From assembly GCF_029227855.1 (NCBI RefSeq), contig NZ_CP074356.1: 64,000 bases of DNA, one strand, 5' to 3'. A model generated the notes under the pieces. It was given only the letters and a program-made list of their open reading frames with translations, was not told the DNA's origin and did not search any database. The position numbers and the translations under genes were made by a program. The DNA comes from Escherichia coli (lineage in GTDB: Bacteria > Pseudomonadota > Gammaproteobacteria > Enterobacterales > Enterobacteriaceae). Shown in pieces: positions 13,950-61,025 of the stretch; positions within the stretch are counted from its first letter, which is position 1, and each line of letters opens with the position of its first letter.

Positions 13950-14495
13950 GTGGACGATTTGACCGCACAAGCCCTGAAAGATTTTACTGCACGCTACTGC
14001 GATGCGTGGCATGAAGAGCATAAAAGCTGGCCGTTGAGTGAGGAACTGTACGGCGTTCCTTCACCGTGCATTATTTCAACCACCGAAGACGCCGTATACT
14101 GGCAACCCCAGCCGTTTACCGGGGAACAAAATGTAAACGCGGTTGAACGCGCTTTTGATATTGTGATACAACCCACAATTCATACCTTTTATACGACTCA
14201 GTTTGCCGGGGATATGCACGCGCAGTTTGGCGATATTAAACTGACATTGCTGCAAACCTGGAGTGAAGACGACTTCCGTCGGGTGCAGGAAAATCTGATT
14301 GGTCATCTGGTGACTCAGAAAAGGCTAAAATTGCCGCCCACGCTATTTATCGCGACGCTGGAAGAAGAGTTAGAGGTGATCTCGGTGTGTAATCTCTCCG
14401 GTGAAGTGTGCAAAGAGACGCTGGGAACACGTAAACGGACGCATTTAGCCTCAAATCTTGCGAAATTCCTTAATCAACTTAAGCCTCTTCTGTAA
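13950..14495 (+). CDS. syd: SecY-interacting protein Syd, 181 aa (GTG start)
   Basis: ORF track 181 aa [20 protein letters not shown]... Confidence 0.9.
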
Positions 14496-14513
14496 TCCAA
14501 ATACCCCATCTGG

Positions 14514-14531
14514 TTGTGAGAGATCTCTTAC
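14514..14531. promoter_or_regulatory. 18-bp palindrome TGTGAGAGATCTCTTACA, candidate UvrY (BarA/UvrY) box about 180 bp upstream of csrB
   Basis: Near-perfect inverted repeat read directly; matches the UvrY/SirA box class known upstream of csrB. Confidence 0.6.
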
Positions 14532-14705
14532 AGACTCTGTAGGAGATCGCCAGGAAATAAGCGATTACTTAAAAAGATAAGAATCGTTATTTTCATTTAA
14601 AATCAATATATTGCTTGTCAATTCTTAACTTTCATATGAAATTTTCCTTAAGGCATTGTCTGTAAGCGCCTTGTAAGACTTCGCGAAAAAGACGATTCTA
14701 TCTTC

Positions 14706-51175: not shown

Positions 51176-51382
51176 CGAGCAGCATTCCTGATTTTAAACG
51201 TGAACGCCGCTGGAAGAATTATCAGGTATAGAATGGCGTTGGGTGCTTGAGGCTGTCTGGCGTTAAGCATTCGCGAGGTTCCAGATGGACAAAAGCCCCA
51301 GGCGATATTTCTATCAACCTGAGGCCAGCGTTCGAACCTAAGCAATTCGAATGTTAGTCTCTTCTTTGCAGGGAGGCAAGAC

Positions 51383-51535
51383 ATGCTGACAAAATATGCC
51401 CTTGTGGCAATCATCGTACTGTGTTGTACAGTACTGGGATTCACGCTGATGGTAGGCGACTCGTTGTGTGAGTTGAGTATCAGAGAACGTGGTATGGAGT
51501 TTAAGGCAGTTCTCGCTTACGAATCGAAGAAGTAG
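51383..51535 (+). CDS. hokX: Hok/Gef-family type I toxin (hokX-like), 50 aa: [50 protein letters not shown]
   Basis: Below the ORF-track size cutoff; translated by hand: single TM helix then Hok signature SLCEL-IR...G.E..A.LAYES; GGGAGG RBS 6 nt upstream; lies between cysH and cas3 like the K-12 hokX/sokX locus. Confidence 0.8.
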
Positions 51536-60386: not shown

Positions 60387-61025
60387 GTGTTCCCCGCGCC
60401 AGCGGGGATAAATCGAGATCACCGTGTTAAATAACCGATTGAACGCCGTGTTCCCCGCGCCAGCGGGGATAAATCGGCCAGGCCAATACAGTTGGCGAAG
60501 AAGCGAAGGTGTTCCCCGCGCCAGCGGGGATAAATCGACACCGGGCTGGATAAAAAAACTATCGGGAAAGTGTTCCCCGCGCCAGCGGGGATAAATCGCC
60601 GTTTGATAGCTGTTCACGCTGGCTGATGCCGTGTTCCCCGCGCCAGCGGGGATAAACCGCGCAGTTCGCTACCGAGCGTGGTTTGCTGGTCGTGTTCCCC
60701 GCGCCAGCGGGGATAAACCGGCGCACAGCGACGCGAAATCAACGAAAATTTAGTGTTCCCCGCGCCAGCGGGGATAAACCGATTGCCAGATACTGTGTAT
60801 ATCCACCGACTAAGTGTTCCCCGCGCCAGCGGGGATAAACCGCAGGGAAACCGTTCGTACTTATCGACCTCAACGTGTTCCCCGCGCCAGCGGGGATAAA
60901 CCGAAGGGGACGGCTACGGGACGCCGCCTATTGATGTGTTCCCCGCGTCAGCGGGGATAAACCGGACGCACTGGATGCGATGATGGACATCACTTGGAGT
61001 TCCCCGCCCCTGCGGTAGAACTCCC
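60387..61025 (+). CRISPR. CRISPR array (K-12 CRISPR I / 2.1 equivalent): 11 x 29-bp repeats GTGTTCCCCGCGCCAGCGGGGATAAA(T/C)CG, 10 x 32-bp spacers, period 61; terminal repeat degenerate (GAGTTCCCCGCCCCTGCGGTAGAACTCCC)
   Basis: Repeats start at 60387, 60448, 60509, 60570, 60631, 60692, 60753, 60814, 60875, 60936, 60997; counted directly. Confidence 0.96.

Follow-up and report, generated by a model that had tools for sequence, protein, structure and literature searches.

The spacer between syd and csrB in the Escherichia coli chromosome contains an 18-bp palindrome, and the locus raises the question of whether this palindrome is the operator through which phosphorylated UvrY (UvrY-P) activates csrB. 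The stretch of DNA analysed here (64,000 nt, referred to as the window) covers the chromosomal region fuc-sdaCB-queF-syd-csrB-yqcC-truC-gud-barA-rlmD-relA and onward, and the features relevant to the question are listed in Table 1.

Table 1. Features of the syd-csrB spacer and associated genes, with window positions, strand, and the basis of each assignment
Feature	Positions	Strand	Basis
syd (SecY-interacting protein)	13950..14495	+	ORF; NCBIfam NF003439 equivalog, 285.7 bits; annotated as syd in a near-identical genome
18-bp inverted repeat TGTGAGAGATCTCTTACA, UvrY-P binding site, csrB upstream activating sequence	14515..14532	.	Sequence, consensus, conservation, and published K-12 footprint
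Second conserved block CTGTAGGAGATCGCCAG (CTGTRRGAGATCGCCAG)	14537..14553	+	Identity of 0.91 and fixed 5-nt gap in 11 genera
IHF consensus match AATCAATATATTG (fits WATCAANNNNTTR)	14601..14613	+	AT-rich; between UvrY box and promoter
Conserved block CTTGTAAGAC	14670..14679	+	-36 to -27; identity of 0.97
Conserved block GATTCTAT	14694..14701	+	Identity of 0.97
csrB, 369-nt CsrA-sequestering sRNA	14706..15074	+	Rfam RF00018; K-12 annotation
barA, tripartite sensor kinase phosphorylating UvrY	21341..24097	-	918-aa ORF; NCBIfam NF008318; annotated as barA in a near-identical genome

The 18-mer TGTGAGAGATCTCTTACA occurred only once in the window, at 14515-14532. A preliminary description of the locus had placed it at 14514-14531, which reads TTGTGAGAGATCTCTTAC and is one base too far to the left. 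The two distances given there, 19 nt from the syd stop and about 180 nt before csrB, proved to be correct; the stop codon (TAA) occupies 14493-14495, leaving a gap of 19 nt, and the centre of the box is located 182.5 nt upstream of the csrB start (14706), i.e., at -183/-182. The 5' end of csrB was taken from the K-12 annotation (369-nt csrB and 210-nt syd-csrB spacer), which was aligned base for base with the window. The csrB gene differed from K-12 csrB by two substitutions; its match to Rfam RF00018 extended over 14715-15074 (382.9 bits), and its terminator hairpin (15039-15064) was followed by a T run.

The symmetry of the element was evaluated separately from its sequence. TGTGAGAGATCTCTTACA is an imperfect dyad, in which eight of the nine pairs are complementary and two bases differ on the reverse strand. 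Palindromy by itself was not significant; nine 18-nt near-palindromes (at most one mismatched pair) were found in the window compared with 6.7 ± 2.3 in shuffled sequences, and palindromy was dropped as evidence because near-palindromes of this length occur at chance frequency. The match of TGTGAGAGATCTCTTACA to the published box consensus was above chance. The UvrY/GacA box TGTRAG-N6-CTYACA (TGTRAGNNNNNNCTYACA) was matched exactly at 14515-14532 and nowhere else in the 64 kb, for an expected number of 0.02, and any match at all was observed in only two of 100 shuffles.

Conservation was assessed by retrieving Syd orthologues (70-93% identical) of ten additional genera of enterobacteria and comparing the DNA that follows their genes, giving 11 genera with the window; loci chosen by Syd are selected blind to the box. 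csrB was present at the same place in all ten further genera. Across the 11 genera, 17 of the 18 columns of TGTGAGAGATCTCTTACA were invariant (identity of 0.99), the sole change being G to C in Intestinirhabdus, whereas the flanks showed identities of 0.67 (19 nt before the box) and 0.65 (5 nt after it). The distance from the box to csrB, measured to the Rfam start of csrB, was 199-203 nt in every genus, while the intervening DNA was only 0.5-0.7 identical, and the box was found at the same distance in four Escherichia loci that share a 39-nt pattern at the csrB 5' end. Within the species, 5426 complete E. coli genomes were compared; 5425 of them contained the 65 nt around the box, always in a single copy, and the sequence was identical in 4363. 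Compared with K-12 MG1655, the syd-csrB spacer of the window carried substitutions at five of 210 positions, none of which fell in the box or in the second half-site downstream of it. The alignments place both the box and its spacing under strong purifying selection. The element combines the consensus, the position upstream of csrB, and the conservation amid diverged flanks that characterize UvrY/SirA/GacA/VarA boxes. A functionless chance palindrome, which the count of near-palindromes in the window relative to shuffled sequences (9 vs 6.7 ± 2.3) might have suggested, is already refuted by this conservation and by the UvrY-P footprint that has been published for the same sequence in K-12; the rarity of the consensus and the fixed distance to csrB also contradict it, and we give it no credence.

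The same genome comparison showed some variation in the locus as a whole. For 22 of the 5425 E. coli genomes (e.g., NZ_CP046009.1), no single place covered 80% of a 721-nt syd-csrB-yqcC query. A break in the match was seen in strain 1919D62 at approximately window position 14799, inside csrB, suggesting an insertion or rearrangement in the gene. The syd-csrB-yqcC region was missing from one E. coli genome and was located on a plasmid record in another.

Zere et al. 2015 (PMC4682653) applied ChIP-exo to UvrY in both E. coli and Salmonella and found csrB and csrC to be by far the strongest targets. In that study, the strongest UvrY peak genome-wide extended from -222 to -142 of E. coli csrB, and TGTGAGAGATCTCTTACA, with its midpoint at -183/-182, lay in the middle of this peak. 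The DNase I footprint at csrB covered the inverted repeat only and was obtained with phosphorylated UvrY only, and deletion of barA led to an approximately 35-fold loss of in vivo UvrY binding at csrB (PMC4682653). Without IHF, CsrB decreased approximately 10-fold, an effect epistatic to uvrY, and IHF raised UvrY binding approximately 2.5-fold and csrB expression 10- to 12-fold (PMC4682653). The same work reported that UvrY-P, IHF, and RNA polymerase yielded no csrB transcript in a defined in vitro transcription system and that a second, promoter-proximal crosslinking site (-56 to +25) gave no footprint in vitro; mutagenesis of the box was not part of it (PMC4682653). As early as 2006, sRNA genes of the csrB type were being predicted with a conserved 18-bp UvrY/GacA site in their upstream DNA as a criterion (PMC1488887). 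Related forms have been quoted for Shewanella (TGTAAGN6CTTACA; PMC3171408) and for Vibrio, where TGTG[AC]GAGATCTCT[TC]ACA is given as the VarA site preceding four copies of csrB (PMC6262261).

Earlier work on K-12 DNA of identical sequence has thus demonstrated binding in vivo and in vitro, as well as dependence on phosphorylation, BarA, and IHF. The UvrY site upstream of csrB is already known, and its importance is established in the literature; our analysis confirms the observation at this locus and supports its interpretation. The proposal that the palindrome is a UvrY operator for csrB is borne out by UvrY-P binding to the identical 18-mer at the identical position in K-12 (PMC4682653). 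The assignment to UvrY in the preliminary description was accurate, while its wording ("UvrY-box-like") was too weak, as the site is the UvrY box itself, footprinted in K-12 on the identical sequence. A real regulatory site had been recognised there from the sequence alone. As the window is the same as K-12 at the box and the half-site, the UvrY-P footprint and EMSA that it proposed have already been performed.

The second conserved block, which follows the box at a distance, contains an accessory half-site, TGTAGGAGA (14538-14546), 5 bp downstream of the box. It repeats the left arm in the same orientation, and PMC4682653 refers to it by the words "partially conserved additional sequence". 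The palindrome and this neighbour can also be read at the RNA level, as a hairpin that closes the syd mRNA at its 3' end and serves as a terminator or stabiliser, in place of a DNA site for a protein. The element begins 19 nt past the syd stop, and the RNA of 14496-14560 was predicted to form a 12-bp hairpin (-21.8 kcal/mol, z = -3.25), in which the right arm of the box pairs with the second box. However, this hairpin is probably an automatic by-product of three half-sites whose orientation alternates. The variants of the second box among genera (TGTAGGAGA, TGTGAGAGA, and TGTAAGAGA) were one-sided and stayed within the half-site consensus, with no compensatory change. The same 18-mer precedes Vibrio csrB genes in other genomic contexts (PMC6262261), and direct protein binding has been published (PMC4682653). 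No U tract follows the hairpin; an intrinsic terminator of syd was rejected, as the hairpin lacks a following T run and the terminator scan reported none there. We regard an RNA hairpin in place of a protein-binding site as very unlikely, although a secondary role at the 3' end of syd mRNA may exist beside UvrY binding.

CRP-cAMP sites follow the consensus TGTGA-N6-TCACA, in which the 6-bp spacer is obligatory. The left arm of the box contains TGTGA, which is a CRP half-site, and CRP binding upstream of csrC in competition with UvrY is cited in PMC7591399; the box could accordingly be taken for a CRP-cAMP site. At the 6-bp spacing, however, the right half is TCTTA, which agrees at only three of five positions, and the candidate was rejected because the dyad is absent. 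CsrB expression was unchanged during growth according to PMC7591399, and the footprint published for the box is that of UvrY-P. A CRP-cAMP site is hardly conceivable here, even less so than the syd hairpin.

The IHF consensus match AATCAATATATTG lies in AT-rich DNA, with the UvrY box on one side and the promoter on the other, as an IHF site would, and IHF is predicted to bind there. Nine matches to WATCAANNNNTTR were found in the window, compared with 2.5 expected, and a consensus match alone would be weak evidence of a site. AATCAATATATTG differs from K-12 by two substitutions, both at NNNN positions, so that the IHF consensus is preserved, and its cross-genus identity was moderate (0.73). 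A putative IHF site is marked in a figure of PMC4682653 between the two crosslinking regions, and AATCAATATATTG is a candidate for it.

An AT-rich near-palindrome, AACTTTCATATGAAATTT, was also observed at 14627-14644, centred at -70.5 of csrB, with an identity of 0.68. Its core, TTTCATATGAAA, was shared by E. coli, Salmonella, and C. koseri, had one change in E. albertii, and was not retained in the more distant genera. The search for a regulator of 14627-14644 gave no assignment.

No canonical sigma-70 promoter was found at csrB by the consensus scan. The two conserved blocks preceding the start provide likely promoter elements; TTGTAA (14671-14676) in CTTGTAAGAC is likely the -35 region, and GATTCT in GATTCTAT is likely the -10 region, judging by its distance from position 14706, where csrB starts. 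The two hexamers are 17 nt apart, and GATTCT agrees poorly with TATAAT, which would be expected where a promoter depends on an activator. CTTGTAAGAC is also readable as a perfect UvrY half-site (TGTAAGA) and falls within the published downstream crosslinking region of -56 to +25 (PMC4682653).

We conclude, with a probability of about 0.96, that 14515-14532 is the high-affinity site of UvrY-P, which from there, together with IHF bending, switches on csrB; no observation spoke against this assignment. BarA (21341-24097) phosphorylates UvrY, a regulator of the FixJ/NarL family probably encoded outside the window; UvrY requires BarA-dependent phosphorylation to bind, as published experiments on the same K-12 box have established. 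UvrY-P presumably binds as a dimer, with one 9-bp arm (TGTRAGAGA) per subunit, and the third half-site, TGTAGGAGA, probably recruits further protein. Because approximately 183 bp separate the box from the weak promoter downstream, IHF bending would be needed for activation. IHF would bend the intervening AT-rich DNA at the consensus match (14601-14613), and the bend may deliver UvrY-P to RNA polymerase at the -35/-10 elements (TTGTAA, 17 nt, GATTCT) by DNA looping. The fixed spacing of 199-203 nt is compatible with such an IHF-bend geometry. Once csrB transcription is on, the CsrB RNA sequesters CsrA.

Two further properties of the spacer could modify this activation, although we consider both improbable: UvrY-P binding may be sensitive to Dam methylation, and CTTGTAAGAC may act as a low-affinity UvrY half-site after IHF bending. 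A GATC site (14522-14525) lies exactly on the dyad of the box, in the central AGATCT, and a second one (14545-14548), at a distance of 23 bp, is part of the accessory block. Ten of the 11 genera have retained each of these sites, the first being lost in Intestinirhabdus and the second in C. freundii, and both losses were G to C changes at the same half-site position. The central GATC may simply come from abutting two TGTRAGAGA arms. Dam or GATC sites at the csrB promoter were not mentioned in Zere 2015 or in the other papers found, and the literature search returned only incidental co-occurrences. If UvrY-P binding were methylation-sensitive, CsrB synthesis would also depend on whether the DNA is methylated or hemimethylated.

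The second property would explain the promoter-proximal ChIP-exo crosslink, and CTTGTAAGAC was not described as a promoter-proximal UvrY half-site in the literature examined. Two direct copies of TGTAAG, at 14661-14666 and 14672-14677, were observed 11 bp apart, at -45 and -34, and both fall inside the promoter-proximal UvrY crosslinking region. The -45 copy was lost in five of the 11 genera (Yokenella, Enterobacter, Kosakonia, Kluyvera, and Raoultella). The -34 copy lies in the invariant block CTTGTAAGAC and coincides with the likely -35 region, a hexamer that would be conserved in any case. The csrC promoter carries no TGTAAG at its -35 region despite the same downstream crosslink. As a promoter-proximal UvrY site, the TGTAAG pair suggested by the sequence is weakened by the loss of the -45 copy in five genera and the lack of an equivalent at csrC.

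The sensor kinase gene barA had been noted as a neighbour of the palindrome, 7 kb away. The ORF at 21341-24097 matched the NCBIfam NF008318 BarA equivalog with 1623.9 bits (cutoff of 890), and its distance from the box was 6.8 kb, which agrees with that statement. No support for a functional meaning of this linkage between the csrB box and barA was found here or in the literature examined, and uvrY was not among the genes annotated across window positions 3400-64000.

Other features were observed in the remainder of the window. relA (25503-27737) and mazG (27833-28624) are separated by 95 nt, with no mazE-mazF pair between them; in E. coli K-12, this position is occupied by mazE-mazF. The near-identical genome JNEC-KY178 is annotated likewise, with relA and mazG and without mazE-mazF between them. 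Two type I-E CRISPR arrays (34109-34686 and 60387-60964) contain ten repeats each with a 61-nt periodicity, and, going by how the near-identical genome is annotated, a complete cas3-casABCDE-cas1-cas2 operon is located between approximately 51.8 and 60.4 kb. A sok antitoxin RNA (Rfam RF01794, 111.7 bits; 51241-51398) adjoins a gene of the Hok/Gef family, and this hok/sok locus is chromosomal, located between cysH and cas3.

The closest known counterpart of the box is the UvrY site of E. coli K-12 csrB (PMC4682653), which has the same 18-mer at -183/-182, TGTAGGAGA 5 bp downstream, and a 210-nt spacer. The window strain differs from it by the five spacer substitutions elsewhere, two of which are in degenerate IHF positions. 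At Salmonella csrB, the SirA site carries this 18-mer as well, with its centre at -182/-181; the second half-site is likewise shared, and an IHF site is present (PMC4682653). The Salmonella row of the 11-genus alignment was identical to the window in the box, while the gap between the syd stop and the box was 17 nt, compared with 19 nt in the window. The UvrY site of E. coli csrC (TGTGAGACATTGCCGATA) shares the left arm, the far-upstream position, and a UvrY-P footprint with the csrB site. In contrast to the csrB site, it has weak symmetry and no IHF dependence, and its extra TGTAAG is located 16 bp upstream, whereas the csrB half-site is located 5 bp downstream.

Outside this group, the GacA/VarA box TGTAAG-N6-CTTACA (rsmX/Y/Z and the csrB genes of Vibrio and Shewanella) has the outer hexamers and the 18-bp dyad in common with the window box and, like it, is located upstream of genes for sRNAs that titrate CsrA/RsmA. 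The Vibrio form TGTG[AC]GAGATCTCT[TC]ACA also shares the centre. The central six bases are free in the generic GacA consensus, whereas csrB-type sites in Enterobacteriaceae and Vibrio have them fixed as AGATCT. The analogy drawn in PMC4682653 is with narG, which is controlled by NarL, IHF, and Fnr. The regulator, half-site, and signal of narG differ from those of csrB, but in both cases a regulator of the FixJ/NarL family binds near -190 and IHF bends the DNA in between.
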